A stretch of DNA of 28,309 nt, from IMG/VR virus record IMGVR_UViG_3300035492_000070, one strand, 5' to 3'. The DNA is from a virus (lineage: Duplodnaviria > Heunggongvirae > Uroviricota > Caudoviricetes). This document shows positions 1 to 15,490 of the stretch, piece after piece. A model generated the notes under the pieces. That model was not told the origin of the DNA. It worked only from the letters and a program-made list of their open reading frames with translations, and searched no databases. The translations under genes and the position numbers were made by a program. Every line of letters begins with the position of its first letter. The first letter of the stretch is position 1.

Positions 1-73
1 GACCTGTCAAGAAAAAGTTTCTACCCGCCTTAATAGAGTCGTACGCATATTGCTGTTTATCATTTAAAATCAT
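1..73 (-). CDS. 5' end (24 codons) of a probable SF1 Dda/Pif1-like helicase, runs off the window
   Basis: Manual translation MILNDKQQYAYDSIKAGRNFFLTG(P..) resembles the 'LNxxQ..A...I..G.N.FLTG' lead-in to Walker A of Pif1/Dda/RecD helicases; AGGTG RBS upstream. Not in the ORF track because it is truncated. Confidence 0.55.
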   Translation of the reverse strand, partial: MILNDKQQYAYDSIKAGRNFFLTG

Positions 74-91
74 ACCAATTCACCTATAACG

Positions 92-113
92 AAAAGGAGG
101 GCTATTCGCCCTC
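92..113 (-). terminator. Possible intrinsic terminator overlapping the stop codon of the RyR-domain gene
   Basis: Minus strand GAGGGC-GAATA-GCCCTC followed by CTTTT; short stem and short U tract. Confidence 0.45.
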
Positions 114-485
114 AGGTAACAAAATCAATTTCATTCGATCTACAGTAGCACCGAACAGGTAATCTTTACTTCTTTGCTCTTGTGGTAGATCCTTATAAGG
201 AACCATACAAGGATGACGTTTCGTTTCAGGGTCTTTCACTGGACCGTAAATCCAACCGTCTTTGACTTTGTCCTTCATCCAGTTCTTGTGCATATCTTCC
301 GGTGTGGCATTACTATTCTCAAGACGGAACAGTACGCCGCTATAAGAGGATTGTTTCATATGAGCAGGAGCTTCTTCCCAAGCAGGAATGCTCATATCAC
401 CTAAAGATTCACAATACGCCTTGTTTACAGAATGTGCAACTTGAGCAATAAAGTCAAATGTCGCAATCATTTCTTCATTAGTCAT
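102..485 (-). CDS. Stand-alone RyR (ryanodine receptor repeat) domain protein
   Basis: HKNWMKDKVKDGWIYGPVKDPETKRHPCMVPYKDLPQEQRSKD matches the RyR repeat signature H..W...K...GW.YG...D...K.HP..VPY..L...E+.KD. Confidence 0.75.
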   Translation of the reverse strand: MTNEEMIATFDFIAQVAHSVNKAYCESLGDMSIPAWEEAPAHMKQSSYSGVLFRLENSNATPEDMHKNWMKDKVKDGWIYGPVKDPETKRHPCMVPYKDLPQEQRSKDYLFGATVDRMKLILLPEGE

Positions 486-891
486 TTTTAGGAACTCCCA
501 TTTGGTATTTGCTTACTAAGTTCCATTGGTCTTTTTCTGCAAACTTCACTACTTTGACAATATTTGCATGACCCATAGGATCTAATTTAGATTGATCGAC
601 AACTTTTAATAAATTCCAGTCAGCTAACATTTGAGCAATTCGATTTCTACGGGCATAATCACCGTCGCTAATGTCTGTACGGAAACCATCAAGAGCCAAC
701 ATTTCTTTAAAATGACAAATATAATACTTTCCTTTCTTGTGTAAGATATGAGCCGATTGGTTCAAAGTTTTTTCGTTACGACTTGCTACGCCCATTCGAG
801 TTAAGGTTTCTTTAATTTTACGGAAACCATTCACTTCGTCAACTGGCAGTACCTCGATCATCTGTTCAATAATATCATCCGCCCTAATCAT
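478..891 (-). CDS. regA: RegA translational repressor
   Basis: FRKIKETLTRMGVAS..KTLNQSAHILHKKGKYYICHFKEMLALDG..RRNRIAQMLADWNL is the T4 RegA signature; position after gene 62 is conserved. Confidence 0.92.
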   Translation of the reverse strand: MIRADDIIEQMIEVLPVDEVNGFRKIKETLTRMGVASRNEKTLNQSAHILHKKGKYYICHFKEMLALDGFRTDISDGDYARRNRIAQMLADWNLLKVVDQSKLDPMGHANIVKVVKFAEKDQWNLVSKYQMGVPKND

Positions 892-1352
892 CTTTTTCTC
901 CCGCCTTGTTCATACAAGGACTCAATTAATTTAATTTCATTTTCGTTAAGCAGCTTTAAATATTCTAAAGCTTTTACTCTACTTATACAGTAATGTTTCA
1001 TTAGAAGTTCTAAAACTTCTTTGTTGCTATTGTCCTGTTTAGCCCATTTACCGTAACGCTTCCTCTTCGGAATTATATAGTAATAGAAATCATGGACCAT
1101 TTCTTTAGAGCAACGCCAATGCTTGTTCATTTCATTTGCAACCATTATAGTGTCCTGGTTTTGCGATAAAGCACGGTTAATCATGAACACTGTAAATTCA
1201 CGCTCAGTTGAGTCATTAAACAAATAGTTCTTATCAGAACATAAGTCACTTACAAAATCAAACAGACCGACTTTTTTAGGTGCCTTTTCTTCATTAGCCA
1301 CTTCAGCTATTTTACTACCGTCAAGAGTTACTGTCATGGCATCACCTATCAT
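888..1352 (-). CDS. gp62: Clamp loader small subunit gp62 (start may be the ATG at 1337, preceded by AGGTGA)
   Basis: FMINRALSQNQDTIMVANEMN..HDFYYYIIPKRKRYGKWAK..YCISRVKALEYLKLL; lies between 44 and regA. Confidence 0.85.
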   Translation of the reverse strand: MIGDAMTVTLDGSKIAEVANEEKAPKKVGLFDFVSDLCSDKNYLFNDSTEREFTVFMINRALSQNQDTIMVANEMNKHWRCSKEMVHDFYYYIIPKRKRYGKWAKQDNSNKEVLELLMKHYCISRVKALEYLKLLNENEIKLIESLYEQGGRKR

Positions 1353-2293
1353 TTAAAGTTCACGTTGATCATTAGATTAACACAAAGAGCCGCAATATGT
1401 AACTCCTTATCGGGAACGACATGATCATACCGTTGATAATCTTCCAAAATTAAAATCGCCTCTGGAATAGAATCAGGAACAACCAAATCCTTCAAGTTAC
1501 GATATAAACGAGTATACAGGTTAGACAAGTCATTGCCTGCATTATCAGCACACCATTGACGTACATCTTTGAAAGATTTTGCCTTCAAAGACTTCACAAG
1601 GTTTTCCATACTTACTTCCTGTAAGTCTAATAGAATACCTTCATCAATTTCACCGGCGCGGGCGTATTGTTGCAACTGACCTAAAATTCTACGGTTGTCA
1701 GGGAAGAATTTAGTGATTAATGCAATAACAGCACGTTGATTGAACTTGACATTTTCGTTATTAAGGATTTCGGTTACACGGGCAAAGAACATTGCTTGTA
1801 ACTTAGGCATTTCTTCTTTTGAAATATCAAAAGAGATATGGACACTACGACTAAAGATAGCATCAATAATACGGTTAGGGTAGTTGCACGTTAAGATAAA
1901 TGAACACGTCTTACTGTATGCTTCCATTGCATGGCGTAAACCACGTTGAAGTGCATCACTCATACCGTCTGCTTCATCTAAAATGATACATTTACCATTA
2001 TCAGAGAATGAAACAGTTGAGGCAAATTCTTTAATCTTTGTACGAAGTGTATCAATACCTGTTTCATCAGAACAGTTGATCACGATCCAATCAACCCCTA
2101 GTTCATGACATAACGCCTTAGCAGCAGTAGTTTTACCTGTACCTGGACCGCCACTCAATGCAATATTTGGAATATGGCCGGTACTAATAATATTCTTAAA
2201 TTCGGTTTTAATCGACTGTGGTAGAATACAGTCGTCTATTTTACGAGGGCGGTAACGTTCTACCCAGAGAGGTTCAGTTTTATCGAATTGCAT
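1349..2293 (-). CDS. gp44: Clamp loader large subunit gp44 (RFC-like AAA+)
   Basis: LWVERYRP, Walker A GGPGTGKTT, Walker B IILDEAD, IIDAIFSR sensor region, FFPDNRR. Confidence 0.95.
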   Translation of the reverse strand: MQFDKTEPLWVERYRPRKIDDCILPQSIKTEFKNIISTGHIPNIALSGGPGTGKTTAAKALCHELGVDWIVINCSDETGIDTLRTKIKEFASTVSFSDNGKCIILDEADGMSDALQRGLRHAMEAYSKTCSFILTCNYPNRIIDAIFSRSVHISFDISKEEMPKLQAMFFARVTEILNNENVKFNQRAVIALITKFFPDNRRILGQLQQYARAGEIDEGILLDLQEVSMENLVKSLKAKSFKDVRQWCADNAGNDLSNLYTRLYRNLKDLVVPDSIPEAILILEDYQRYDHVVPDKELHIAALCVNLMINVNFK

Positions 2294-2318
2294 ACATCAC
2301 TCCAATTCATAATTATTC

Positions 2319-2350
2319 AAAAAGGGGCAGGTAAAACATAAACCCTGCCC
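2319..2350 (-). terminator. Stem-loop/terminator between gene 45 and gene 44
   Basis: Minus strand GGGCAGG-12 nt loop-CCTGCCC followed by CTTTTT. Confidence 0.55.
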
Positions 2351-2384
2351 AAGCAGCACACACACACGAGGTTAGAACTACATA

Positions 2385-3074
2385 TTAAGCGAATGTAGAG
2401 TTCGCGTCAAGTGAAACCCAAAAGGTCTTATTACCGTTCTGTACTTTAGAAATCTTCTTAGAAGATATTTCAAATTCACAGTCACCATCTAATACAGTCA
2501 GTGCATCTGTTTTGTAGAACAGTTCAAATGTATCATTTGACTCACCAACTTCAATAGAGAAGCCGTTGGTGTCATCGCCTGAGCCATTATTGCGATCAAA
2601 AGCTGACAGGTAAATTTTGCCATCAACTGTACGGAAACCAATGTATTCCAGTTTCAGTGTCTGCGCTGCGCCCATAACGGCTTTTAATTGGCCTGCATTT
2701 ACATTGACAGTCACATCAGTTGAAGGAAGTTTGAAATCTTTCTCGAAGTAAGAGTTGATTAAGTTCTCAGCACCGTCAACATACTTCAATTTCTGACGAC
2801 CATCTTCAGATTTAACGGTAACGAATTTATCATTACTGAAATCCAGTGTAGGTGCATCAAACAACGATAATACGCTAATAAACTCACGTAAATCATAGAT
2901 ACAGAATGTACGAGGGAATGCAGTTTCCATATTTGTAATTAACGCGATTGTTTTAGTTTCATTGACAGAGCGTAACTCAGTCTTTCCACCTACAATTTTC
3001 AGCGTCTGGTTAATAGGATAAAGGCTCTTAAGAGTGTCGATATCCGCTTTGCTTAATTTAATTTCACTTGACAT
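2385..3074 (-). CDS. gp45: Sliding clamp gp45
   Basis: KLSKADIDTLKSLYPINQTL..FPRTFCIYDLREFISVLSLFDAPTLDF; 229 aa; immediately upstream of 44-62-regA. Confidence 0.9.
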   Translation of the reverse strand: MSSEIKLSKADIDTLKSLYPINQTLKIVGGKTELRSVNETKTIALITNMETAFPRTFCIYDLREFISVLSLFDAPTLDFSNDKFVTVKSEDGRQKLKYVDGAENLINSYFEKDFKLPSTDVTVNVNAGQLKAVMGAAQTLKLEYIGFRTVDGKIYLSAFDRNNGSGDDTNGFSIEVGESNDTFELFYKTDALTVLDGDCEFEISSKKISKVQNGNKTFWVSLDANSTFA

Positions 3075-3091
3075 AATAAAGCTCCTTTGCT

Positions 3092-3874
3092 TCAGGTTTT
3101 TGGTTTTTCATACTTATATGATGATGGAATAGTAAACACAAACTCATCCATGACGCGCATAATGGATAAATGGTTACCGTACACACACCCAGAGTCTATG
3201 TTGTAGACTTTGGCTCTATTTCCTAATTGTAACTGTTTCTGTTCACTCATGTCAAGAAACTTCCATGATTGGTGTCCATGAACATGAATAATATCTTGTT
3301 GAATATGCTTGAGCAGTTCAAACCGAGTAGATTCGGAATTAAACATGAAGTCACCTAGACTACGCAAATGAATTTCCTCATTAGCACCTAACCATCCATT
3401 CTTATTGAAATTGCGTATAGGCGAATGACTGAACAGTAATACCTTACCTGTAGATTCATCTACCAATTCCATAAAAGGTATTAAAGAACGCATATATGCT
3501 TTAATACTGTTCTTGCATTTGTCTCTGAATGTTTCAAACAGGGCATGAGTAACCACACGAGAATTTTCTTTGCATTCACGGTGTCCTAATTGCTCTTGTA
3601 GGAAATACCATTCGTGGTTTCCCATTAATTGAAAGTCGACGAATAGTTCTGAAAGCCGAAGAGTTTTAATTAAATCAGGACCACGGTCAATCAAATCACC
3701 TAATTGGACAATGTAAGACATCTTCCCTCTGCGTTTGGCATCTTCACGACACCAAAGAATTGCAGACTCAAACTCTTCGTGACACTGATGAATATCGCCT
3801 ATTGCATAAACTTCATGACGGTTACTATCAAAATGCTGAGTTAATTTCCATGTAATATGGTTTAAAGGGTCCAT
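3092..3874 (-). CDS. Calcineurin-like metallophosphoesterase (Pnkp/ApaH/Prp-type)
   Basis: GDIH, GDLIDRGP, GNHE, SH, HGH and IDSGCVYGNHLS motifs; AAGGAG RBS 6 nt before the ATG. Confidence 0.85.
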   Translation of the reverse strand: MDPLNHITWKLTQHFDSNRHEVYAIGDIHQCHEEFESAILWCREDAKRRGKMSYIVQLGDLIDRGPDLIKTLRLSELFVDFQLMGNHEWYFLQEQLGHRECKENSRVVTHALFETFRDKCKNSIKAYMRSLIPFMELVDESTGKVLLFSHSPIRNFNKNGWLGANEEIHLRSLGDFMFNSESTRFELLKHIQQDIIHVHGHQSWKFLDMSEQKQLQLGNRAKVYNIDSGCVYGNHLSIMRVMDEFVFTIPSSYKYEKPKT

Positions 3875-4386
3875 TCTTTACTCCTTGCAGTACGAACTTC
3901 TTCGTAAGATTGACTTAACTCAATAAACCTTTTGTTAGCAGTCGATATAAATGCGTCTACGAACGCATCAGTGCTGTTCATGTAGGTATCATAGTGCCTA
4001 CGTATTACTTCTTCAGGGATGTTGATAGGCTGAGTTTTAGCACGATTCTCGTTACGCTTAATCATTTCCTCTATTGAAGGTGGTTGAATTGATATACAAA
4101 CAACCTCGACATTGTACTTATCAGCTAGTGCAAGGTATTCTTTACAATCACGAAACTTTAAATTGGTTGCATTGACTACTGTATACAGACAACCATTCTG
4201 TAAACGCAATTCTAAGATTTGACGGAGTGTATCAAACACCAAAGCATTTCTCGATTGATCGGAAATTGATCCAGTTAACATTCCACGAAACTTGTCACTT
4301 GACAATACGTTATGTTGGTAGAAATACTTTTCACAGTAGGTATCTTTACCTGAACAGGTTGTACCTCTCATAAGATATAAAATCAT
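3862..4386 (-). CDS. P-loop kinase resembling the bacterial Pnkp kinase domain (AAA_33-like)
   Basis: LYLMRGTTCSGKDT, VLSSDKFR, DQS..VFDTLRQILELRLQNG..VVNATN, MIKRNENR parallel the Clostridium-type Pnkp kinase domain. Start placed at the ATG at 4386 rather than 4407. Confidence 0.78.
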   Translation of the reverse strand: MILYLMRGTTCSGKDTYCEKYFYQHNVLSSDKFRGMLTGSISDQSRNALVFDTLRQILELRLQNGCLYTVVNATNLKFRDCKEYLALADKYNVEVVCISIQPPSIEEMIKRNENRAKTQPINIPEEVIRRHYDTYMNSTDAFVDAFISTANKRFIELSQSYEEVRTARSKEWTL

Positions 4387-4390
4387 AAAC

Positions 4391-4588
4391 TTACCACCCA
4401 TTTCCAATTGAAGTGACGAACACGATGATTGATAAAAACAAGAGTGTTAAAACTCTGTAAAATGCTTTGTTTAACTTAGGCAATGTATAGTCAAATAACC
4501 ATACACCTAGTTTTAAACAGGTTAACATGATACATACCCAAAGTAGAATTGCGAAAATTGCTAATGATGTAGTTGCTACTAATCCCAT
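4391..4588 (-). CDS. Small membrane protein, first gene of the early operon
   Basis: Two hydrophobic segments; AGAGGA RBS 7 nt before the ATG at 4588; directly downstream of a consensus promoter. Confidence 0.55.
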   Translation of the reverse strand: MGLVATTSLAIFAILLWVCIMLTCLKLGVWLFDYTLPKLNKAFYRVLTLLFLSIIVFVTSIGNGW

Positions 4589-4618
4589 GATATAATCCTC
4601 TTTCTTCACTGTGCCTAT

Positions 4619-4647
4619 ATTCTATTAGCTATTAGGTCAAATGTCAA
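4619..4647 (-). promoter_or_regulatory. Sigma70-type early promoter for the leftward operon
   Basis: Minus strand TTGACA-17 bp-TAGAAT. Confidence 0.8.
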
Positions 4648-4727
4648 GAGATTTTTCAGAATCTGCAATAGTGAGTGAAACGAACGAGGTTAGCCCTTAT
4701 AATTAATAACGAGTGAAACGAGTGAGG

Positions 4728-4756
4728 TTGACAGAATCAAAATTTTCTTATATAAT
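4728..4756 (+). promoter_or_regulatory. Perfect consensus sigma70 promoter, rightward
   Basis: TTGACA (4728-4733), 17 bp, TATAAT (4751-4756). Confidence 0.75.
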
Positions 4757-4850
4757 AACGAGCGTAGCGAGTGAGGTTAACTTCTTTCTAATCTTTTTCT
4801 TATTTTCTATTTTTTATATTCTTCTTCTAACCTCGTTCGTTTCACTCACT

Positions 4851-4878
4851 ATTATATAAAGGATTTTGATCTTGTCAA
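4851..4878 (-). promoter_or_regulatory. Consensus sigma70 promoter, leftward, facing the 4728 promoter
   Basis: Minus strand TTGACA-16 bp-TATAAT, with an A/T tract upstream (TCTTTTTCAAAAAGA at 4881-4895). Confidence 0.68.
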
Positions 4879-5041
4879 GCTCTTTTTCAAAAAGATTTTA
4901 ACCAGTTAACCTCACTCGCTACGCTCGTTATTAATTATAAGGCCAGAGCTTGTAGGATCGAGCCAGTCAATACGAAACATGAAGTTAATATCAAGGTATT
5001 ACACAATCAAAGAAATCCTTAGAATTGTTTCTAGGGCGTTT

Positions 5042-5049
5042 AATAAATA
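5042..5049 (+). promoter_or_regulatory. Probable T4-type late promoter (AATAAATA)
   Basis: One-mismatch TATAAATA about 30 nt upstream of the ATG at 5080; AAGGAG RBS follows. Confidence 0.55.
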
Positions 5050-5079
5050 GTTTGATACATTTCATAAGGAGAATTCGTC

Positions 5080-5889
5080 ATGTATGAACTTCAACTACTA
5101 AGCAACACTTCGTTTGAGTTATACAGCGAATTTTCTATTCCTGTTGGTACCTCATTAATAATCACCAACAACACAACATCAATAGTTTTTGTGAATCAAC
5201 ACGAAGAAGGCGAATCTTCTGCCCCTTACCCTTTATGGCCAGCTCAAACTGCTCTTGTTCATGGTATGGAAGATGAACTTGTTTGGGTGAAAGGTTCTTC
5301 CAATGGTAAAATTCTTGTTCAAGAACTTACCAATACAATCACACCTTTTACAGCAGTTGAGTTAGCACAAGATTTGTATACATCAACCGTAGAAGGTTTT
5401 AGGCGTATACGAGTAGACGTAGGACAAACTGGATTTTTTGAAGGTAGAGAATTCCGAACATTCAAAGACCTTTCTATACCATCAGGTAGCACATATACCG
5501 TCAAAGTTGTTGTAAATAGAAACACAATTTTATGGAATACTTCTTTAAGTCTAGAATCAGGTGGACTGAAATTAAGCACTGTTGCAGGTGGAAGTGATAT
5601 TGACCCTTTCACTACAAGTTTACCTAGAATACCTAAAAATCGAATGACATTTGCGCCTGTTGTTGAACCCTTAAATACAATTCAAGAAGGCGGTACTATG
5701 GCGGGCGGTACTGTAATTGACGTGGTTAGACTTTCTACAGCAAGTTCTACAACACAAAGATCTTCTGTTGGTGGGTCGGTTGCTGACGAGAGGGGTGTAT
5801 CGCCCGGTGTGTATTACTTTGTGTTCCAAAATACATCAAATAGTGATGTTGCCGGTACATTTCATATGTTCTGGGAAGAACGACTATAA
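5080..5889 (+). CDS. Hypothetical protein, likely late/virion-associated, beta-rich
   Basis: 269-aa ORF with strong RBS and late-promoter-like box; S/T/V/G-rich composition. No family recognised. Confidence 0.65.
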   Translation: MYELQLLSNTSFELYSEFSIPVGTSLIITNNTTSIVFVNQHEEGESSAPYPLWPAQTALVHGMEDELVWVKGSSNGKILVQELTNTITPFTAVELAQDLYTSTVEGFRRIRVDVGQTGFFEGREFRTFKDLSIPSGSTYTVKVVVNRNTILWNTSLSLESGGLKLSTVAGGSDIDPFTTSLPRIPKNRMTFAPVVEPLNTIQEGGTMAGGTVIDVVRLSTASSTTQRSSVGGSVADERGVSPGVYYFVFQNTSNSDVAGTFHMFWEERL

Positions 5890-5892
5890 ATA
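5885..5892 (+). promoter_or_regulatory. T4-type late promoter TATAAATA
   Basis: Exact consensus overlapping the upstream stop codon, 35 nt before the gp8 ATG. Confidence 0.8.
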
Positions 5893-5926
5893 AAATTAAT
5901 ACAATATTGGCTCTTTGGAGAGAACA

Positions 5927-7240
5927 ATGCCTAGCATTATCAACAACCCTTTAAGAATTTTGAACGCAGATGCTCTGGTTACTCGATTAGCCAAAGAGCC
6001 TGCTTATCTTTTCATTGGCAAAAACACGCCTTGGCCCGATGAAGAAATGCCTAACCTTATTATCGACTCAACAGAAGAAAAGATTGAGTTGTATAATAAT
6101 CTATTGGCGGTAAAAAGAATTGATCCGTCGAATATTTCATCGGTGATCCCAAGAGTAAATTGGACATCAGGTGAGATTTACGATTCATTTGACCACCGAC
6201 AAAATATGGTTGATGGTAGAGATATTGATGGTAGAAAATTCAACTTCTATGTTATGACAGATGAGTTTAATGTCTATAAATGTCTAAGCAATAACGGTGG
6301 TGTACCATCTACAATTAGGCCTACGTCACAGCAATTAACGCCTTTCTATACCCCTGATGGATATGCTTGGAAATTCATGTATACCATCAGAGCAAGTGAC
6401 GTATTCAATTTCTTAACTTCTGAGTGGATGCCTGTATATACACTACAAGAAAACGACGGTTCTTCTCAGTGGCTGGTCCAAGAGAATGCTATTCCGGGTG
6501 GGATTCACGATATTAAAATCAATAGCCGTGGTTCAGGTTATGATACTGTAAATTTACCAACTGTTCAAATTACAGGTAATGGCACAGGCGCCACTGCTAT
6601 TGTCCAGGTTAACTCGGTTGATGGTGGTATTGATAGAATTTTAATTACTAATCCTGGTTCAGGTTACACTCAAGCAACTGTGACTATATCCGGTTTAAAT
6701 ATTACCCCTGCTTCAACAACTGCTATCTTATCCCCTATTAAAGGCCATGGCAAGGATGCAGTGCTAGAGTTGGGTGGTACACATAAAATGATTAAAACCA
6801 CTCTTAACGGTCAAGAAGATGGTAAATTCCCTATTACTTCGTTTAGACAGGCAGGGATTATATCAAAACCGATTTCTTCGACTGATGTTGGTACTAGGCT
6901 AATCGTCAATAACACCAATGGATTCAGTGTAGGCGATACAGTGAACGGGTCCTTATCAGGTGCAAGTGCCATTGTGCGTTTAATTGAGGTAGATTCTAAT
7001 ATTGTTTGGTTATCGAATGTATTAGGTACATTCAGTCAAAGTGATACACTCACTAACGGTATAGTTTCATCCAACATTAATAGAGTATTTTCTTCTGTAA
7101 AATTACCTTTAATTGTGCCAGTGGCTGCTGCTTCTGAAATTGAATACGGTTCAGGGAATTTATTATATCAATCAAACCGTGTATTAATTAACCGTGGTGC
7201 TGATCAGTCAGAAGAAGTTAGAATGGTTATAACGTTCTAA
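5927..7240 (+). CDS. gp8: Baseplate wedge subunit gp8-like
   Basis: VIPRVNWTSGEIYD, FYVMTDEFNVYKCLSNNGG, PDGYAWKFMYTI, and C-terminal YQSNRVLINRGADQSEEVRMVITF. Start set at ATG 5927 (GGAG RBS) instead of TTG 5915. Confidence 0.82.
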   Translation: MPSIINNPLRILNADALVTRLAKEPAYLFIGKNTPWPDEEMPNLIIDSTEEKIELYNNLLAVKRIDPSNISSVIPRVNWTSGEIYDSFDHRQNMVDGRDIDGRKFNFYVMTDEFNVYKCLSNNGGVPSTIRPTSQQLTPFYTPDGYAWKFMYTIRASDVFNFLTSEWMPVYTLQENDGSSQWLVQENAIPGGIHDIKINSRGSGYDTVNLPTVQITGNGTGATAIVQVNSVDGGIDRILITNPGSGYTQATVTISGLNITPASTTAILSPIKGHGKDAVLELGGTHKMIKTTLNGQEDGKFPITSFRQAGIISKPISSTDVGTRLIVNNTNGFSVGDTVNGSLSGASAIVRLIEVDSNIVWLSNVLGTFSQSDTLTNGIVSSNINRVFSSVKLPLIVPVAAASEIEYGSGNLLYQSNRVLINRGADQSEEVRMVITF

Positions 7241-7248
7241 ACTAAATA
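7241..7248 (+). promoter_or_regulatory. Late promoter variant ACTAAATA
   Basis: Intergenic, 33 nt before the ATG at 7281; the same variant recurs before three other late genes. Confidence 0.65.
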
Positions 7249-7280
7249 GAACAATATATTTTATAAGAGAGAAGGCTTAA

Positions 7281-10200
7281 ATGGTAGACACTAGCATTGC
7301 TCCATATTTTGACGATTACGAAGCAGGTAAAAATTACCATAAAATGCTTTTTGTTCCTCGTCGTGCTGTTCAGGTAAGAGAGTTGAACCAACTCCAGACT
7401 ATGTTGCAAGAACAGGTCAAAAGGTTTGGTAATCATGTATTTAAAGATGGTTCAATGGTCATTCCAGGCGAATTTAATTATGACCTGAACTTTGAATATG
7501 TTACTGTTTCAGGTCTAAACTTTAATGACATTCTGCCTTTTTTACAGAATAACACCGTTGAGTTGGTTGATGGTTCTGGTCGTGTTGCTAAGGTAATTGA
7601 ATATGCCGAAAACACTCTAACTGACCCTGTTACATTCTTTGTTCAATATACAGACAATAATGACAACGATACTGCCAGGTTTGTTAATGGTACAACATTA
7701 ACTCTTAAAACGTCTTTGGGTGTTAATATCACGACAATGACTGTTCTAGGTACAGGTCAAGGTTCTGTTTTTACTGTTGAAAACGGTATTTACTTTATTA
7801 AAGGCAACTTCATTCAGTCGAACTCTCAACGTATTGTCATTTCAAAATATACGTCTGTGCCTGATGCTATTGTTGGTTTTAGATTAAATGAAAATATCGT
7901 TACCTATTCAGAAGATACTTCTCTATTAGATAACGCTAACGGTACTACCAACTTCAACGCAATCGGTGCCGACCGTTTAGAAATGAAGCTTGTTTTAGAA
8001 TCTTACCCTTCTGGTTCAACGTTCGATAGAGAAAACTTTATTGAATTGGCTGTATTTGAACAAGGTGAACTGAAACAACAGGCTCGTACTCCTGATTATT
8101 CTATTTTAGAAGAGACTTTAGCTCGTCGTACATTTGATGAGTCAGGAGACTATACTGTTTCTGCTTTTGGTTTAACTGTTCGTGAACATTTGAAATCAGG
8201 CGACAACAACGGTTTGTATCCTGCTCCTCAGGGCGATTCTTCTAAGTTCGTAGTTGGTGTTGAACCTGGTAAGGCCTATGTAAAAGGTTTTGAAGTTGAA
8301 AATATCTCGACTCAATACGTAGAAGTGGAAAAAGCTAGAACAACCGCTGTAGAAAATAACTCAGCATTCACTGCTCCTGTTGGCAATTATGTGTTGGTAT
8401 CTTCTCCGAACACCATACCTAATTCAAATGAACACCAGCAAATATCTTTCTATAGTGGTACATTTATTTCTCCGGGTAGTGTTCCTTCGGGTACTGTTTT
8501 GGGTACTGCTAGAGTTAAGTATGTGTCGTTCAACGCTACGAGTGATATATTAGCACTCTACTTGTTTGATGTTAAGAATGCCGCTGGGTTGAATGATTCT
8601 AGTTTCTTGGCTAATGCACAATCAGTATACTCTGCTGGCTCGCCTTCGTTTACCGCTGGATTAGAGTCGGAATTAATTGAGTCTATTAACTACTCTAACA
8701 TTTTCAGATTACCTGTGTCTAATGTCAAGAGTTTATTAGACGGTTCCGTATCAGATACTTCTTTGTCGGTGTTACGTCAATACCAAGCAACCGCTGATAC
8801 CAACGGTACGATCGTATTAACTGCTGGTACAAATGAAATTTTTGCTACACCTACCACTTCAAATTCATGCGCTGCGTTAGGCGGTGATGTCGTTGATATC
8901 TCAACTATTGCGGTATTGGGTGGTATTCCATTAGGTAAAACTTTAACAATCAACTTTGGTTCGGGTAATGCATCTCTGCCTGTCAGGGTTAGCACTCAAG
9001 TAGTTAAACAAATCGCGGCACAAAGAAGCAAAGTGTTGACTCCTAGAACCATCACAAGAACTCCTGCTCAGTTCGTAGGCAATCGCTTATCGTTAGGTAG
9101 AGCGGATGTCGAAAAGTTGACATCTGTAGTTATGGGTGGTGTGGATATTACCAGTTCATTCAAATTAGTTAAAAACGATACTCTTGAGTCATATGGTATT
9201 TCTTATATTGAGTTATTACCTGGACAAGCAATGCCTAGTGCTGATGTAACAATAAATTACCAATATTTCTTACATGGTACAGGTGATTTCTTCTCGGTTG
9301 ATTCTTACTCGGGTATTAACTATGAAGATATTCCTAAAGTTCGCATTAATAACCGTGATGTCAGCCTAAGTGATGTTCTTGACTTTAGACCGCGTATAAA
9401 CGACGCAGGTACAGGTTACACTGGGACAGGCGGTACTGTAACAGAGGCACCGGTCCCTTTCACTGTTATTCGAGCTGATGTTGAACACTACTTACCAAGA
9501 ATTGATAAGGTGTTTGTAACATCAAAAGGTTCTTTTGGTGTTGCTAAAGGCGTACCTAGTATTTCACCTGTAGAACCGACTACACCTGATAATTCAATGG
9601 TCATCTATAAATTAGATGTGCCTGCATATACTGCCTCTGTTAATGATATTCAAGTTCAATATATTAATAACCGCCGGTATACCATGCGGGATATTGGTAA
9701 GTTAGAAAATCGTATTTCTAACCTTGAATACTACACGACCTTATCTTTGTTAGAAACCGAGACAGAGGCAATGCAAGTCATTGACCCACTGACCGGTTTA
9801 AATAGGTTCAAGAACGGTTTCATTGTTGATAATTTTGTTGATCATAGCGTAGGCTCATTCACTTTACCTGAATATAAGTGCTCAGTATCAGGTGAGTTAG
9901 CAGAGCTACGTCCAGAATTTACTTCCGATTATATCGACTTTCAATTCAATGTAGGTGGGTCTAGCGGGGTAACTCGTAAAGGTCAGTTGATTACCTTACC
10001 GTATACCGAAGTAAACTATCTTAACCAAACACAAGCAAGCAACACTATGAATGTGAACCCTTATGCGGTTTATATGTGGGGCGGTAGTGTTACTTTAACT
10101 CCATCTAGTGATGTTTGGTTTGATACTGTATATACTGAACCTGAAGTAACTTTCCGTGTATTCAATAACGGTAACTTATCGCAAGCATGGAACTCTTGGT

Positions 10201-12194
10201 CAACCAACTGGTTAGGTGTATTAGAACGAGATGGTGTTGTTTCTAGAGAAGAGCGTATCGGCGGATTCGTTGATATGGGTCCTATCGTTACCACTACTAC
10301 CACAACCAATACCGCTGTTGTGGGAGATAGAGTAGTAAATCGGTCAGTTATACCTTTCATGAGATCAATTGAGGTAAGGTTCAAAGGTGAAGGTTTATTA
10401 CCTAAGAGCCGTGTATATGCGATTTTTGATAATGTAAACGTTTCTGCTTTCTGTAAACAGGACGGTAAGGCTTATGGTCAAGCAATGTTCACTGATGCAG
10501 ACGGTGAAATTAGCGGTACATTCTTAATCCCGAATAACCAAACAGCAAGGTTCAGAACAGGAACAAAACAATTCACATTAATTGATAACCCTGCAGGTGA
10601 CAAGGTTACATCTGTATCTTACGGTGACGCTGACTTTACTGCTAATGGTACAGTGGTAACAAGAACCCAATCCATTACCACTACACAGAATATCGTTCAA
10701 ACAGTTCAACCTAGAATTAGATTCGTTGATCCTTTGGCACAGTCATTCTTGGTTGATAAGAACGGCGGCTTGTTTGTAACTAGCATTGATGTATTCTTTG
10801 CATCTAAAGACCAGTCTGTTCCTGTTACAATGGAAATTCGTGAAATGGTTAACGGTTATCCGGGCAGAACCGTTATTCCAGGCGGTAAAGTGTTACTGAA
10901 ACCGTCACAAGTCAGTGTTTCAAGTAATGCTTCTTTGAATACAAGATTCACATTCCCAAATCCAGTTTATTTGATGGAAGGCCAGGAATACTGTTTTGTT
11001 CTGTTATCGAACTGTAACTCATATAATGTCTACATTGGTACAATGGGAGAAAGGGTTGTTAACTCTAATGCGTATATCACCAAGCAGCCTTATGTTGGAG
11101 TATTGTTCAAGTCACAGAACAACTCTACTTGGACCGCCGATCAAAACTCGGATATGAAATTTGCGATCAATATCGCAAGATTCCAAACAGGTGTGAACGG
11201 TGTAGCACAATTTGTGAATGGTTATCCTCAAAGTGTGGTACTAGATAATAACCCTCTGACATCAGTGGCTTCTAGTAATGTTATTAACGTTACATTCAAA
11301 AATCATGGCTTAGTAACAAGTGCATTAGTTTCTTTGAGTGGTGTGTCTACTGCGCCAGGTATCCCATTGGCAGAGTTAAATACTAACCATGAGGTGACAG
11401 TTATAGACAATGACAATTTTACAATTCAAGTAACCACGAATGCTAATGCATCGGGTACGTTTGGTGGTAACGCTGTTCAGTGTTCTAAGAGTGTGATTAT
11501 TGATACCTTACAGCCTGTTTCAGAACATTTGGTGTTTGAAGGAACTGATGTAACTTGGACTTACCAGGGTATTACAGGCAAATCGTTAGATGGTATTGAA
11601 ACACCATATATTCAAACTGATGCGTTTAGTGTAGCAGTAAATAGAAATACTAACTTGCCATTCCCTCTTATGATATGTAATGAGGTAGATGAACAAGCTA
11701 AGATTCCGGGTAAATCGGGTGTGATTACAGCGAATATGATTACATTCAACGAAAACATTTCGCCGGTAATTGACTTAGATAGAATCGGTTTAATCACTGT
11801 ACATAACAGAATTAACAATCCTAATTCTTTAAATGAATTGAATGCTAATGGTGGGAATGCCGAGGCAAGATATATCACTAATGTAGTTGGGTTAACCGAA
11901 TCAGCTAATTCGCTAAAAGTGTTTATTGATGCAAATAAACCACAAAATGCAGATATTAAGGTGTTCTATCGTACAGGTAACAGTACAGAAGAAGTAAGTG
12001 CTAAATCTTGGTTAGAGTTAACCACAGTCAAGGCACTAACCACTGTTGACTTGAACACTTTTGTCGAGGCAGAATACGGTGTTGATAATATCACAAACTT
12101 TAGTTTTTACCAATTCAAGATTGTGTTGTTGTCGGAATCTTCATCAGTTATTCCTAGAGTTAAACGTCTGCGTGGTATAGCGTTAGGTACTTAA
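7281..12194 (+). CDS. Large virion structural protein, DUF4815/VrlC-like (baseplate/tail-associated)
   Basis: N-terminus APYFDDYE..KNYHKMLFVPRRAVQVRELNQLQTMLQEQVKRFGNHVFKDGSMV, RYTMRDIGKLENRISNLEYYTTLSLLE and DPLAQSF are characteristic of this family; 1637 aa. Confidence 0.8.
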   Translation: MVDTSIAPYFDDYEAGKNYHKMLFVPRRAVQVRELNQLQTMLQEQVKRFGNHVFKDGSMVIPGEFNYDLNFEYVTVSGLNFNDILPFLQNNTVELVDGSGRVAKVIEYAENTLTDPVTFFVQYTDNNDNDTARFVNGTTLTLKTSLGVNITTMTVLGTGQGSVFTVENGIYFIKGNFIQSNSQRIVISKYTSVPDAIVGFRLNENIVTYSEDTSLLDNANGTTNFNAIGADRLEMKLVLESYPSGSTFDRENFIELAVFEQGELKQQARTPDYSILEETLARRTFDESGDYTVSAFGLTVREHLKSGDNNGLYPAPQGDSSKFVVGVEPGKAYVKGFEVENISTQYVEVEKARTTAVENNSAFTAPVGNYVLVSSPNTIPNSNEHQQISFYSGTFISPGSVPSGTVLGTARVKYVSFNATSDILALYLFDVKNAAGLNDSSFLANAQSVYSAGSPSFTAGLESELIESINYSNIFRLPVSNVKSLLDGSVSDTSLSVLRQYQATADTNGTIVLTAGTNEIFATPTTSNSCAALGGDVVDISTIAVLGGIPLGKTLTINFGSGNASLPVRVSTQVVKQIAAQRSKVLTPRTITRTPAQFVGNRLSLGRADVEKLTSVVMGGVDITSSFKLVKNDTLESYGISYIELLPGQAMPSADVTINYQYFLHGTGDFFSVDSYSGINYEDIPKVRINNRDVSLSDVLDFRPRINDAGTGYTGTGGTVTEAPVPFTVIRADVEHYLPRIDKVFVTSKGSFGVAKGVPSISPVEPTTPDNSMVIYKLDVPAYTASVNDIQVQYINNRRYTMRDIGKLENRISNLEYYTTLSLLETETEAMQVIDPLTGLNRFKNGFIVDNFVDHSVGSFTLPEYKCSVSGELAELRPEFTSDYIDFQFNVGGSSGVTRKGQLITLPYTEVNYLNQTQASNTMNVNPYAVYMWGGSVTLTPSSDVWFDTVYTEPEVTFRVFNNGNLSQAWNSWSTNWLGVLERDGVVSREERIGGFVDMGPIVTTTTTTNTAVVGDRVVNRSVIPFMRSIEVRFKGEGLLPKSRVYAIFDNVNVSAFCKQDGKAYGQAMFTDADGEISGTFLIPNNQTARFRTGTKQFTLIDNPAGDKVTSVSYGDADFTANGTVVTRTQSITTTQNIVQTVQPRIRFVDPLAQSFLVDKNGGLFVTSIDVFFASKDQSVPVTMEIREMVNGYPGRTVIPGGKVLLKPSQVSVSSNASLNTRFTFPNPVYLMEGQEYCFVLLSNCNSYNVYIGTMGERVVNSNAYITKQPYVGVLFKSQNNSTWTADQNSDMKFAINIARFQTGVNGVAQFVNGYPQSVVLDNNPLTSVASSNVINVTFKNHGLVTSALVSLSGVSTAPGIPLAELNTNHEVTVIDNDNFTIQVTTNANASGTFGGNAVQCSKSVIIDTLQPVSEHLVFEGTDVTWTYQGITGKSLDGIETPYIQTDAFSVAVNRNTNLPFPLMICNEVDEQAKIPGKSGVITANMITFNENISPVIDLDRIGLITVHNRINNPNSLNELNANGGNAEARYITNVVGLTESANSLKVFIDANKPQNADIKVFYRTGNSTEEVSAKSWLELTTVKALTTVDLNTFVEAEYGVDNITNFSFYQFKIVLLSESSSVIPRVKRLRGIALGT

Positions 12195-12195
12195 T

Positions 12196-12411
12196 ATGGT
12201 AACTTTGCATAAAGTTGAAGGGTACAAGGGTTTGCGGAAGGATTCGCAAACCGGTGCCGTAATCAATACAGATAAAAGCGCTTTAATGCAGGCCAAAGAA
12301 AGAAAGGCTGCGATATTAGCGGAAAAACAAAGAGTTTTGAATTTAGAAAAACAAGTTGAAGATCTAACATTATTGGTTCAACAACTGTTAAATAAGGAAT
12401 CTAATAAATGA
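12196..12411 (+). CDS. Small hypothetical protein with C-terminal coiled coil
   Basis: KVEG..L.+D..TGAVINTD then an amphipathic helix; I recall this type of ORF following DUF4815 genes in T4-like phages; tightly packed with its neighbours. Confidence 0.65.
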   Translation: MVTLHKVEGYKGLRKDSQTGAVINTDKSALMQAKERKAAILAEKQRVLNLEKQVEDLTLLVQQLLNKESNK

Positions 12412-12947
12412 GTCAAGTGTTAACACCTAGAGATACCTTTAGACAATGGTATGAAAAGATTAATGCTATTGTAACAGGACAAGATTTCGGCAGCACGGGT
12501 TTTTATTACGACCCTTCTCAGGATGATGGACTTACCGTATCTGTATTGTCGGGCAATGTCAGGTCAGGATCTGTAGTTGAGGTGTTGCCTGACTCAACGT
12601 TCTTGCTACCCGCTAGCACCATTTCGGTGTTATGTGTTTATAAAGGGATTAGTCAACCTGCGGACTTTCGATTATATACAGCAGGTCAACTACCAGAGTA
12701 TGACGTCATCCCGTTATGGGAATTTATTACCTCTGATAACAGTGTCGTTGAATACACTGACCTAAGAACCGCATTCGTTATGAGTGGTTCAGGAACACAG
12801 CAACGCGGTATTCTGTTTATGGACAAAACCATTGACCAAGATTATACCGTAGACGCCAATAAAAATGCTTTATCGGTTGGCCCTATTACCGTATTAGAAG
12901 GTGTAACGGTAACCGTCGATGGTTCTTCTGAATGGGTGGTGGTATAA
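12408..12947 (+). CDS. Probable virion structural/fibre-associated protein
   Basis: N-terminal DTFRQWYEKIN and C-terminal TIDQDYTV..KNALSVGPITV..GVTVTV..SEWVVV resemble motifs of phage structural proteins; ATGA and TAATG overlaps with its neighbours. Confidence 0.6.
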   Translation: MSQVLTPRDTFRQWYEKINAIVTGQDFGSTGFYYDPSQDDGLTVSVLSGNVRSGSVVEVLPDSTFLLPASTISVLCVYKGISQPADFRLYTAGQLPEYDVIPLWEFITSDNSVVEYTDLRTAFVMSGSGTQQRGILFMDKTIDQDYTVDANKNALSVGPITVLEGVTVTVDGSSEWVVV

Positions 12948-13684
12948 TGGATAGAGCAGGATTTTCAGAATATTGCTTAAGAAAGCTGGGTAAACCTGTT
13001 ATTAACATTAACGTAGCGCCCACTCAGATAGAAGATCGTATTAATGAGGCCATTCAAGTGTGGCACGAAAAACATTTCGACGCAACAGAAAAAACATGGG
13101 TAGCTTATCGTTTAACAGAGCAAGATGTTCTTAATGGTTATATTACCATGCCAAACGATATTCATATTGTAGACCAATTAATCCCAATGTCAACAATTTA
13201 CAAGGAATATGGTTCTGACAGTTTATTCAGTTATCGTTATCAATTTATGATACAGAACATATCCCCTTTCATGCCGTTGGACACCTTGAACTACTATATG
13301 ACCATGCAGAACATTAATGAGGTTAATGACCTTGTTAACACAACTGAAAGGTTTGAGTTTACGAAGCATAAGAATAAATTGGTAGTGTATAAAGGACTAG
13401 AGAACATGAAGGTCGATGATCTTTTATGTTTTCATGTATATAAGAAAATTGACCCTAACACAGATGAATCTGCGTGGGAAGATAAATGGTTACGCCAGTA
13501 TGCTACCGCTTTGATTAAACGACAATGGGGTGAGAACCTTAAGAAACACGGCGAGATTCAGTTGTTAGGTGGTGTAACTGTTAACGGTCAACAAATTTTC
13601 GATGAAGCGATTCAAGAATTAGAGAAGCTGGAAACCGAGTTAAGAGAAACCTATGAGGAACCAGTATCTTTTTTTGTAGGATAA
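12947..13684 (+). CDS. gp13: Neck protein gp13
   Basis: EYCLRKLGKPVININVAPTQIEDRINEAIQ..W+RQYATALIKRQWGENLKK..LLGGVTVNGQQIFDEA..EEPVSFFVG. Start at ATG 12947 (TAATG coupling). Confidence 0.92.
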   Translation: MDRAGFSEYCLRKLGKPVININVAPTQIEDRINEAIQVWHEKHFDATEKTWVAYRLTEQDVLNGYITMPNDIHIVDQLIPMSTIYKEYGSDSLFSYRYQFMIQNISPFMPLDTLNYYMTMQNINEVNDLVNTTERFEFTKHKNKLVVYKGLENMKVDDLLCFHVYKKIDPNTDESAWEDKWLRQYATALIKRQWGENLKKHGEIQLLGGVTVNGQQIFDEAIQELEKLETELRETYEEPVSFFVG

Positions 13685-13731
13685 GTAACTGTTTTTAGTT
13701 ACAAAAGAGGTTCGTAACTGTTTTTAGTTAC
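13685..13731. repeat. 18-bp direct repeat GTAACTGTTTTTAGTTAC, each copy a hairpin
   Basis: Copies at 13685-13702 and 13714-13731. Confidence 0.9.
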
Positions 13732-13743
13732 GAACCTCTTTTT
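13703..13743. terminator. Bidirectional intrinsic terminator between convergent genes
   Basis: 17-bp perfect stem AAAAGAGGTTCGTAACT / AGTTACGAACCTCTTTT, 6-nt loop, A tract on the left and T tract on the right. Confidence 0.85.
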
Positions 13744-13745
13744 GT

Positions 13746-14033
13746 TTAGAAACTATAAAATCCCATTTCGCCGGCTACACCTACATATCCACCATGTTTG
13801 TTTAACCATGGTTGTAAGTTAAAAGCCACTGTCCAACGACCCCAGGACGGTACGTAAAAAACCACGTAGTCAACTGTCTTTGTTGTGTTAGCGTCAAAGT
13901 ATTGTGCTAACTTTTTAGATACTTCCTCGGCTACCTTTTCTGCGCGGGCCTCTGTTGCGTAATTTTTACAAGGGCTTTTGTTTTCTGTGCGGTACTTTTC
14001 GATACGAGCTACTAAAGATTTGATAATGTTCAT
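13746..14033 (-). CDS. Hypothetical 95-aa protein, antisense early gene inside the late cluster
   Basis: Has its own promoter, an AAGGA RBS and a terminator; no family recognised. Confidence 0.75.
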   Translation of the reverse strand: MNIIKSLVARIEKYRTENKSPCKNYATEARAEKVAEEVSKKLAQYFDANTTKTVDYVVFYVPSWGRWTVAFNLQPWLNKHGGYVGVAGEMGFYSF

Positions 14034-14073
14034 AATGTAGTTTCCTTTTCACGTTGTTTGTTTAACTGTTCTT

Positions 14074-14102
14074 ATTATAAGAGATGGTTAGATATACGTC
14101 AA
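14074..14102 (-). promoter_or_regulatory. Strong sigma70-type early promoter with AT-rich UP element
   Basis: Minus strand TTGACG-17 bp-TATAAT; A/T tracts at 14107-14133. Confidence 0.85.
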
Positions 14103-14140
14103 CAACTTTTTTTAAATTATTTTGAAAATTTTTCACATTC

Positions 14141-14148
14141 ACTAAATA
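14141..14148 (+). promoter_or_regulatory. Late promoter variant ACTAAATA for gene 14
   Basis: Sits right after the antisense insert, 28 nt before the gp14 ATG. Confidence 0.68.
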
Positions 14149-14175
14149 GATAATAACCCTTAACAGGAAACAGCT

Positions 14176-14802
14176 ATGCTCAACCCTTACCACTCACATT
14201 ATACAGCAACGAACGAGCAAGATTTGACCGACTCCTTAATCATCGAGGCGATACAAGCAAAGGGCCTAGAAATTAAATACATGCCTCGTACGCATAACAA
14301 CTATAACGCTCTTTTCGGTGAAGACCCAACATCATCATTTGAATCGTGTACCTCAATTGAAATGTATCCAGCAGATGTTTCTGGTTTTGGTGGAGACGGT
14401 GAGTTAATGTCTAAGTTTGGTTTAGAGATTAAAGACACTGCAACATTTATTCTTAACAAGACCAGGTTCAAACAAGAGTTTCCGGATATGGTTCGCCCTA
14501 AAGAGGGCGACTTGTTATTCATGCCTTACACTAATGCAATTTTAGAAATTAAGTTCGTTAACCATGAAAGTCCATTCTTTCAACAAGGTAGACAATACGT
14601 TTATGAACTAAAAGTAGAAACGTTCGAATTAAGCCATGAAGAGTTTATAACAAATGACACTGAGATTGACGGTTTGATTGGTGACCTATTAGATTTTGAT
14701 TCAGAAATAGAAACCGAGAAATACGGCGATAACGATGTATTGGAAACTGAATATGAACCTAGTACATCTTTTGATCCTGCTAATCCTTTTGGAGTGAATT
14801 AA
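14176..14802 (+). CDS. gp14: Neck protein gp14
   Basis: EQDLTDSLIIEAIQAKG..KYMPR..LFGED..GFGGDGELMSKFGLEIKD..RPKEGDLLFMP..PFFQQG..YELKVETFE. Confidence 0.92.
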   Translation: MLNPYHSHYTATNEQDLTDSLIIEAIQAKGLEIKYMPRTHNNYNALFGEDPTSSFESCTSIEMYPADVSGFGGDGELMSKFGLEIKDTATFILNKTRFKQEFPDMVRPKEGDLLFMPYTNAILEIKFVNHESPFFQQGRQYVYELKVETFELSHEEFITNDTEIDGLIGDLLDFDSEIETEKYGDNDVLETEYEPSTSFDPANPFGVN

Positions 14803-14803
14803 G

Positions 14804-15490
14804 ATGGCGGTATTAGAGAATCATTTTTACCATAAGACAATGACATTATATGCGGGTATTTTCGGCTCTATATTCAACGAGATTAAAATCAAACGAGATA
14901 ACAATAAGCTTATTAAGGTTCCTATTGCATATTCGGCGAAACAGCGGTATGATGTTAGAAACGAACAAAACCCTGACCCTAATTCAGTTCGTTACAAAAT
15001 GCAACTACCTCGCCTAGGGTTTCGTTTAATTGGCTTTCGGAAAGATAGCGACCGTATCACCAATAAAATGATTCGTATCAGGGAAGACTATGATACGATT
15101 GCTGATGGTGTTCAAACTCAATATAACCGTGTTCCATTTATATTCAGCTTTGAGTTAAACGCTAAAACAAAAACACTTGATGATATGCTACAAATCATAG
15201 AGCAGATTGTAGTTTATTTCAACCCATCTTTAACCGTCAACGTTCTAGACAACCCGGATTTAGGCCATGACTCTGCTGTATTGGTCAAATTACTTGACTC
15301 GGGCCTAGATCAAATGTTCGAAGGTTCCTTTGAAATGGAACAGGTAATTGAAACCACAATGCAATTTGAGTTAGAGGGTTGGTTATATCTACCTACTAAC
15401 AATGTCAAAGTCATTAAACAGATTGACATTAACTATTTTGATTTGGATAGACCTGAATTGTTACTAGAGTCTACAAGGATTACAGAATGA
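14804..15490 (+). CDS. gp15: Tail sheath stabiliser/completion protein gp15
   Basis: HFYHKTM..FGSIFNEIKIKR..KVPIAYS..LPRLGF..RVPFIFSFEL..DDMLQIIEQIVVYFNPS. Confidence 0.9.
   Translation: MAVLENHFYHKTMTLYAGIFGSIFNEIKIKRDNNKLIKVPIAYSAKQRYDVRNEQNPDPNSVRYKMQLPRLGFRLIGFRKDSDRITNKMIRIREDYDTIADGVQTQYNRVPFIFSFELNAKTKTLDDMLQIIEQIVVYFNPSLTVNVLDNPDLGHDSAVLVKLLDSGLDQMFEGSFEMEQVIETTMQFELEGWLYLPTNNVKVIKQIDINYFDLDRPELLLESTRITE

Follow-up and report, generated by a model that had tools for sequence, protein, structure and literature searches.

The window analysed here is a 28,309-nucleotide (nt) stretch of tailed phage DNA (IMG/VR record IMGVR_UViG_3300035492_000070). The phage is a T4-like myovirus; among named phages, Pseudomonas phage pf16 is the closest to it (gp44 69% identical). 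The window contains a strand switch: on its left, the - strand carries a small open reading frame (ORF), a kinase, a phosphatase, gp45, gp44, gp62 and RegA, and on its right the + strand carries a 269-aa ORF, a gp8-like baseplate protein and more structural genes. Between the two lies a repeat array, in which five copies of a 25-nt core are found inside 4660-4945 (copies at 4667-4933), three on the + strand followed by two on the - strand. An initial annotation of this DNA had reported five copies, three forward then two reversed, at the strand switch, and the coordinates, a chance test and a contig from a second sample agree with it. It is well supported that the array consists of five copies of a promoter-coupled module with a strand-specific 15-nt hairpin or dyad. 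The cores are located as follows.

4667-4691, + strand: core of copy 1, with the dyad at 4671-4685 and the tail GAGGTT at 4686-4691; same sequence as copy 4; its own -10 is unusable (TGCAAT)
4705-4729, + strand: core of copy 2, with the dyad at 4709-4723; the 35-mer 4695-4729 is common to a second locus (see below)
4754-4778, + strand: core of copy 3, with the dyad at 4758-4772, which holds the mini-hairpin heptamer GCGTAGC
4829-4853, - strand: core of copy 4, with the dyad at 4835-4849; reverse complement of copy 1
4908-4932, - strand: core of copy 5, with the dyad at 4914-4928, which holds GCGTAGC; reverse complement of copy 3

Searched for in degenerate form, the motif has five occurrences in the 28.3-kb window where 0.07 would be expected, and five or more were reached in 0 of 100 shuffles; within the window it is confined to the array. 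The cores have a GC content of about 48%, compared to 32-33% in the surrounding 400-nt bins, and the sole ORF overlapping the array is a 48-aa GTG ORF (4713-4859), as expected from the earlier statements that the motif is GC-richer than its surroundings and that no ORF explains it. Copies 1 and 4 form a perfect 27-bp inverted repeat (4667-4693 with 4827-4853), exactly as annotated. Copies 3 and 5 form another (4753-4782 with 4904-4933), which had been given as 29 bp and measures 30 bp. Direct reading of the aligned modules also returned the reported 34 of 38 matches between copy 2 with its flank and copy 5. The array as a whole folds as a nested quasi-palindrome (z = -6.75) and is capable of forming a cruciform, a possibility already raised in the initial annotation. 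Terminal inverted repeats of a miniature transposon were ruled out, as the pairs are interleaved and a target duplication is absent.

The same arrangement was found in two further assemblies. In a second tar-pit sample, a contig of 700 nt runs across 4546-5245 with zero differences, and a contig from a wastewater metagenome spans 4666-4925 with 14 substitutions and one 10-nt insertion (about 95% identity). We conclude that the array is not an assembly artefact. Logan contigs do break inside the array, which is explained by the repeated 35-mer together with low depth and not by an alternative arrangement. Strand-changing joints were seen in none of the contigs aligned to the array, although contigs drop rare variants and inversion may occur all the same. 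The insertion in the wastewater relative (AAAAGATTTG, after 4889) lies between the leftward 12/12 promoter and copy 5 and resembles a near-tandem duplication of roughly one turn of the helix.

Comparison of the copies revealed how the core varies. It reads A1A2T3A4-R5Y6G7A8G9Y10G11N12A13R14C15G16A17R18Y19-G20A21G22G23T24T25 (RYGAGYGNARCGARY-GAGGTT as a search pattern). Positions 5-19 form a 15-nt dyad, which is followed by the invariant tail GAGGTT. The dyad has Watson-Crick pairs at 5:19, 6:18, 9:15 and 10:14, tandem G.A pairs at 7:17 and 8:16 (5'-YGAR-3') and a G-N-A triloop. Only positions 5, 6, 10, 12, 14, 18 and 19 vary, and all of these except loop position 12 fall into three of the pairs: 5:19 is A:T or G:C, 6:18 is C:G or T:A and 10:14 is T:A or C:G, while 9:15 is always G:C. 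Four haplotypes were found (copies 1 and 4; copy 2, also present at the second locus; copies 3 and 5; and copy 4 of the wastewater relative). In the alignment, 28 of 28 cells pair and three of the four pairs show compensatory change, which was matched by 0 of 500 shuffles. Controls with a slid register showed compensatory change in none. The structure was picked after seeing the data, and the null model was therefore built from two random mutation events on the core with every register searched; under it, three or more covarying pairs arise with a probability of 5.5e-5, which becomes 3e-4 if the sites are made to cluster as observed.

The wastewater relative adds to this pattern. Triple substitutions at 4714/4716/4718 in copy 2 and at 4840/4842/4844 in copy 4 both correspond to T10>C, A12>T and A14>G, and pair 10:14 stays intact. 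The variable 'blocks', which had been read as shuffled between copies by gene conversion, are better explained by compensatory change inside a local 15-nt dyad than by mere block mixing; short-patch gene conversion may nevertheless have spread the variants among the copies. After its switch, copy 4 of the wastewater relative mismatches copy 1 of the window, and at most two unlisted differences are left for copy 1. The long perfect inverted repeats are thus probably not the conserved unit, and what is conserved is probably the local dyad, a step that leans on the difference count of a tool and is weaker than the rest. We also considered direct-repeat half-sites made of two 9-nt units; these were ruled out, as copies 1 and 3 violate the direct repeat yet keep the dyad.

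The predicted hairpin combines two known small DNA folds. Core positions 6-9 over 15-18 make up a 5'-CGAG-3'/3'-GAGC-5' block (C:G, sheared G:A, sheared A:G, G:C); copies 1 and 4 carry a T:A variant of the block, which still obeys the Y-GA-R rule. DNA hairpins with the CGAG block are thermally stable by nuclear magnetic resonance (PMC10085684). In copies 3 and 5, positions 9-15 read GCGTAGC, a heptamer of the GCGNAGC family with the loop-closing pair C10:G14. Mini-hairpins of this family have a melting temperature of 70 C when N = T, are bound poorly by single-stranded DNA-binding protein (SSB), and are found at the priming sites of G4, St-1 and alpha3, at RSF1010 ssiA and at the early promoters of N4 (PMC13037366). 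The complementary strand would carry C/T mismatches and a TNC loop, and the stable form is therefore that of the motif strand. On these grounds we expect the local hairpin to be physically stable.

Alignment of the flanks showed that the repeat unit extends beyond the core and takes in the -10 box of a promoter, and for copies 3 and 4 the entire promoter. The earlier reading overlooked this -10 box, as well as the pairing of the variable blocks. A sigma70 -10 box adjoins four of the five copies, which places the dyad centre at about +2/+3; in every case the motif is carried by the non-template (RNA-like) strand of the adjoining promoter. Two types of module can be told apart. Type I (copies 3 and 4) shares a whole promoter, TTGACA..ATCAAAAT..TATAT followed directly by AATA, and type II (copies 2 and 5) shares the flank GSCCTTATAATT followed directly by AATA. 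The promoters, and the spacer that separates the two central ones, are listed here.

4619-4647, - strand: motif-less sigma70 promoter (11/12), adjoining the first leftward ORF
4675-4703, + strand: promoter PA, GTGAAA-17-TATAAT (10/12); its -10 lies directly before copy 2 (type II, with the GSCCTTATAATT flank and AATA)
4728-4756, + strand: promoter PB, TTGACA-17-TATAAT (12/12, type I); its -10 overlaps positions 1-3 of the core of copy 3
4783-4827, no strand: spacer of 45 nt between the facing 12/12 promoters, 87% pyrimidine on the + strand and about 16-20% GC
4851-4878, - strand: promoter PC, TTGACA-16-TATAAT (12/12, type I), homologous to PB along the full promoter
4934-4939, - strand: -10 box of promoter PD, TATAAT, with a weak -35 (type II), directly before copy 5

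PB and PC are the only 12/12 consensus promoters in 1-15000. The promoters scoring 11/12 (at 4647-4619 and 14102) lack the motif, so that it does not belong to promoters in general. The promoters of the array face each other, two rightward ones on the left and two leftward ones on the right. The spacer starts 5 nt past copy 3 and 2 nt past copy 4. Among the 45-mers of the window it ranks third from the bottom in stability (top 0.08%) and first in pyrimidine content on the + strand, and it is the candidate unwinding or R-loop tract.

A second locus was reached via the dCMP deaminase of a relative, and one edge of its array was recovered. It lies at a strand switch about 54 kb away, where the module is present in at least one extra copy that faces inward as in the window. 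At the start of Logan contig L148, assembled from the same run, stands CCTTATAAT + TAATAACGAGTGAAACGAGTG in reverse complement. This is a module of type II and of the copy-2 type, located 112 nt before a + strand dCMP deaminase gene and pointing away from it. Additionally, the 35-nt unitig corresponding to 4695-4729 has about twice the depth of its flanks, which confirms two genomic copies. The genome sequence examined comprises about 56 kb (the window and contigs L144 and L152), and in the rest of it the dyad pattern was found nowhere else, with one mismatch allowed. Scatter as a generic element, which the initial annotation had counted among the refuting observations, was not seen: within these 56 kb or so the motif is confined to the two strand-switch loci. 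Near the dCMP deaminase we also noted ORFs of about 50 aa belonging to the ArfA family (alternative ribosome-rescue factor, Pfam), at 2261-2413 of L148 in this phage and at 963-1106 of L150 in a relative from another run.

The known distribution of the array is narrow, comprising one tar-pit phage lineage and the wastewater relative. The divergent layout is shared by pf16 and metagenomic relatives, but their intergenic regions are short and without the array. Its absence from relatives with the same gene order indicates that it is not a conserved essential element. A loose motif scan of IMG/VR yielded single chance matches only, exact and tight scans of IMG/VR and JGI metagenomes gave zero matches, a DNA search of a phage collection with 4400-5300 likewise gave none, and a protein-cluster look-up for the flanking proteins returned no close relatives. 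The 28-bp 'phage-specific promoters' annotated in pf16 were ruled out as kin, being unrelated to the motif. One relative contig (L124) has a perfect 24-bp inverted repeat of its own (5340-5363/5701-5724, 337 nt apart), of a sequence unrelated to the motif and situated within a tRNA-like cluster upstream of the homologue of the 269-aa gene.

Turning to the flanking genes, the rightward operon has its own late promoter.

5042-5049, + strand: late promoter AATAAATA, T4-type, 38 nt before the first rightward gene (5080)

The sequence NATAAATA occurs five times in the window, against about 17 expected by composition (5042, 5885, 17698, 23419 and 24210, all on the + strand). All five sites lie 25-49 nt upstream of + strand structural genes and make up a clean set of T4-type late promoters. 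The rightward genes thus have their own TATAAATA-type late promoters, and PA and PB are neither needed for them nor followed by an early gene. For the first leftward ORF, which is served by the 4647-4619 promoter, the probable start is ATG 4591, with AAGAGGA ahead of it, rather than the listed GTG 4609. Further left, the kinase (AAA_33) and the metallophosphatase are separate adjoining ORFs (3092-4407, - strand), like pf16 gp126/gp127, and resemble a split polynucleotide kinase/phosphatase or RNA-repair pair. A 127-aa protein with an RyR domain (PF02026; 102-485, - strand) adjoins regA. A segment of 34 nt within the 269-aa ORF (5292-5325) recurs with four mismatches in other contigs (9.5 kb and 2.9 kb) of both tar-pit runs, which suggests a diverged second copy or a paralogue elsewhere in the genome. 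Contig L144 (9048-11789) encodes a protein of 913 aa in which an exotoxin-type ADP-ribosylating domain (PF03496) is present; it may be an Alt-like ADP-ribosyltransferase that modifies the host polymerase.

Taken together, we tentatively favour the reading that the array is a candidate transcription-activated, bidirectional replication origin of the T4 oriF/oriG type, in which the hairpin on the displaced strand and the adjoining GTT would mark a primase start. The initial annotation had suggested an origin made of iteron-like sites; the origin-type role is plausible and is our leading reading, while the iteron form did not hold up. T4 oriE, oriF and oriG lie near strand switches, and oriF and oriG consist of a promoter and an A+T-rich unwinding element acting via an R-loop (PMC3016281). 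The T4 primase gp61 starts at 5'-GTT or 5'-GCT and makes pentaribonucleotide primers (PMC10187150). In the proposed mechanism, host RNA polymerase would fire inward from the consensus early promoters, and the spacer would be melted by this inward transcription or left with an R-loop; the transcript of the leftward 12/12 promoter would be about 87% purine there. The mini-hairpin would then fold on the displaced non-template strand and resist coating by SSB, and the invariant tail would offer a T4-type primase start (5'-GTT). A 5-nt primer begun opposite T24 would end at G20, flush with the base of the hairpin. The left copies (+ strand) would prime leftward synthesis and the right copies (- strand) rightward synthesis, giving forks co-directional with the flanking operons. 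Such an origin would explain why there are rightward sigma70 promoters without an early gene, and why the core of copy 1 has stayed perfect even though a usable -10 is missing there.

Several observations weigh against an origin of this kind. Converging promoters overwind the intervening DNA, which opposes simple unwinding, and T4 oriF and oriG themselves show no comparable hairpin-plus-GTT module. Syntenic relatives lack the array at both junctions. The loop-closing pair is T:A in copies 1, 2 and 4 and not C:G, and is rated weaker in the literature. ViennaRNA gave 0 to -1.5 kcal/mol for the 25-nt cores in both DNA and RNA modes, no better than shuffles, although these near-zero energies are not decisive, since the parameter sets appear not to credit the stability of the GNA triloop and the CGAG block. 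The covariation goes back to few independent events, namely two switches recombined into four haplotypes. Finally, the cumulative GC-skew minimum, which had been put forward as a way to locate an origin, does lie at the array, but it is confounded with the switch of the coding strand.

A more specific version of the origin model is a possibility that we regard with some doubt. Here each module would be a self-contained origin unit, with an early promoter for the host polymerase bearing at its +1, on the non-template strand, a CGAG-block/GNA mini-hairpin and a GTT spaced for a 5-nt primer, and the copies mirrored around the unwinding tract would launch two outward forks. If true, this origin unit would be new among T4-type phages. 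It would be the first case of a priming signal defined by sequence at an origin of the T4 family, and it would explain how the second (retrograde) fork starts.

The alternative with the best standing is an element that acts as RNA, which we consider doubtful but worth setting out. The hairpin and the Shine-Dalgarno-like GAGGU would then sit in the leaders at the 5' ends of early transcripts and serve stability, processing or binding of ribosomes or proteins, and the facing promoters would produce overlapping antisense RNAs, by which early leftward expression would be controlled or read-through from the rightward promoters into the late genes silenced. The motif strand is the RNA-like strand of its promoter in every case, the covariation is as compatible with pairing in RNA as in DNA, and the RNA fold of copy 3 returns exactly the proposed pairs. 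The expected start of the type II promoters (core positions 5-7) would place the hairpin at the extreme 5' end, and every promoter leader has a perfect or near-perfect complement downstream, in line with the z-score of the whole array. However, the -10 boxes of PB and PC end at core position 3, and their expected start, inferred from the standard spacing between -10 and +1, falls at core positions 9-11 inside the hairpin, so that their RNAs would lack its 5' half. The energies predicted for the RNA hairpin are close to zero (see above), no start codon follows GAGGU, and copy 1 has a perfect core without a usable promoter. The long-range complementarity of copies 1 and 4 is apparently lost in the wastewater relative. 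Further, no family in Rfam 15 reached its gathering score; the only hits were plant microRNA-precursor models (29 and 27.6 bits, against 60 and 211), an artefact of the long inverted repeats.

Recognition of the double-stranded site by a protein is unlikely in our view. The 15-bp imperfect palindrome near +2/+3 would be an operator bound by a dimeric regulator of the phage or the host that switches this special set of strong early promoters on or off in the course of infection. In favour of this, the site has dyad symmetry and occupies -5 to +10 of sigma70 promoters, the classic repressor position; the sites are multiple and clustered, and the same module recurs at a second control region. It does not account for complementarity being kept while the bases change (A:T to G:C, C:G to T:A), which base pairing predicts and two half-sites do not, and mixed non-complementary combinations were unseen. 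The invariant non-Watson-Crick positions fit single-strand motifs (the YGAR tandem G.A and the GNA loop), and conserved asymmetric flanks orient the site. No candidate regulator was identified, and the neighbouring ORFs have orthologues in relatives without the array.

We regard it as improbable that the modules are a mobile or recombinogenic promoter cassette, or invertible promoter segments, with no function in cis beyond the promoter and with the inverted pairs as by-products or inversion sites. Whole promoters have indeed been duplicated: copies 3 and 4 share the -35, the spacer and the -10, and the type II flank is common to copy 2, copy 5 and the second locus. Syntenic relatives lack the array, which is specific to its lineage, and short-patch conversion from copies 3 and 5 could account for the block switches of the wastewater relative. 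A precedent exists in the PeSLs, near-consensus sigma70 early promoters with stem-loops that are repeated as cassettes, mediate shuffling in T4-type phages and vary between related phages (Arbiol et al. 2010, PMC2839356; Comeau et al. 2014, PMC4122927). In the PeSLs, however, the stem-loop is a terminator and the elements are numerous, with dozens in hyperplastic regions, whereas here the hairpin is at the transcription start and has no T-run, no terminator-like stem-loop with a T-run was found in 4300-5300, and the motif, though coupled to strong sigma70-like early promoters as in the PeSLs, occurs at two strand-switch loci in about 56 kb instead of many dispersed ones. The compensatory covariation and the invariant tail point to selection on the core itself, and no recombinase is known in the examined sequence.

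Strict iterons, that is double-stranded repeats bound by a dedicated initiator that melts an adjoining origin, are very improbable even though the repeats are clustered beside an A+T-rich tract at a strand switch and T4 oriE has iterons and RepEA/RepEB: the spacing of 38, 49 and 79 nt and the mixed orientation (three forward, two reverse) do not match the strict 24-nt direct period of T4, the copies are locked to promoters, with a sigma70 -10 box joined to four of the five, the covariation favours pairing over a protein reading, and no initiator gene was identified.

We found no description of a comparable module in the pf16 paper (PMC5587285), the PeSL papers, the T4 origin review, Rfam or full-text searches. 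The ingredients are each known, namely R-loop origins, mini-hairpin initiation signals and promoter cassettes; their combination, and a covarying non-canonical hairpin at the start site of a consensus host promoter, appear to be new. T4-family origins are poorly defined by sequence, and the array offers a compact, sequence-defined case in which natural compensatory mutations flag the pairs that matter. Should the origin reading fail, there would still be an unusual, small non-canonical hairpin under selection exactly at the start of a consensus host-type promoter, and such a case would be relevant to the tuning or timing of early transcription by phages. The module may also serve as a portable strand-specific DNA structure.

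Among known systems, the preferred reading as a transcription-activated origin draws most directly on T4 oriF (uvsY) and oriG (gene 34), which are R-loop-primed (Kreuzer and Brister 2010, PMC3016281). Both there and here a promoter with a sigma70-type -10 (here two at 12/12, one at 10/12 and an extra TATAAT, early-type with a -35) is directly followed by an A+T-rich melting tract, in our case 4783-4827. The functional unit is about 100 bp and lies near a switch in transcription direction, and in oriF the RNA-like strand downstream of the -10 box is likewise, in part, purine-rich. In contrast, the T4 origins use single MotA-dependent middle promoters and lack a repeated hairpin-plus-GTT module, whereas the array has four early-type promoters, two of them perfect consensus, placed face to face, and its role as an origin is predicted from sequence. 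T4 oriE shares with the array the short repeats, an early promoter nearby, on which oriE depends (PMC3016281), and a strand-switch position by baseplate genes. Its iterons (GTTGAAGGTAAT) are 12-nt direct repeats inside gene 5, while the copies described here are non-coding, mirrored, irregularly spaced, promoter-fused and internally paired. The oriE iterons (L154 4927-5058; T4 79426-79557) coincide with a coding-sequence repeat, which may be why their role is unclear; the T4 origins have no common motif, and both the role of the oriE iterons and the part of primase in early initiation are unsettled (PMC3016281).

The hairpin itself is closest to the GNA mini-hairpins of N4, G4/St-1/alpha3 and RSF1010 ssiA (PMC4496689, PMC13037366). 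It shares with them the small size, the 5'G...3'A triloop and stem positions that are free to vary while pairing persists, and with the G4-type origins a primase start triplet immediately 3' of the hairpin. The N4 promoter hairpins require a C:G closing pair and the 5'G/3'A loop bases, and tolerate stem changes that preserve pairing (PMC4496689). They act on the template strand, at -11, in promoters of the virion polymerase, while the hairpins here are on the non-template strand, at about +2/+3 of host sigma70 promoters, and an N4-type virion RNA polymerase was not seen in the examined sequence. The added CGAG block and the T:A closing pair of copies 1, 2 and 4 are further differences, and this phage has double-stranded DNA without a known single-stranded stage. 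The block at core positions 6-9/15-18 is exactly that of the CGAG-block hairpins of the AUTS2 promoter (PMC10085684); those belong to a human promoter repeat studied in vitro only, whereas the phage array is predicted to carry one such block in each hairpin.

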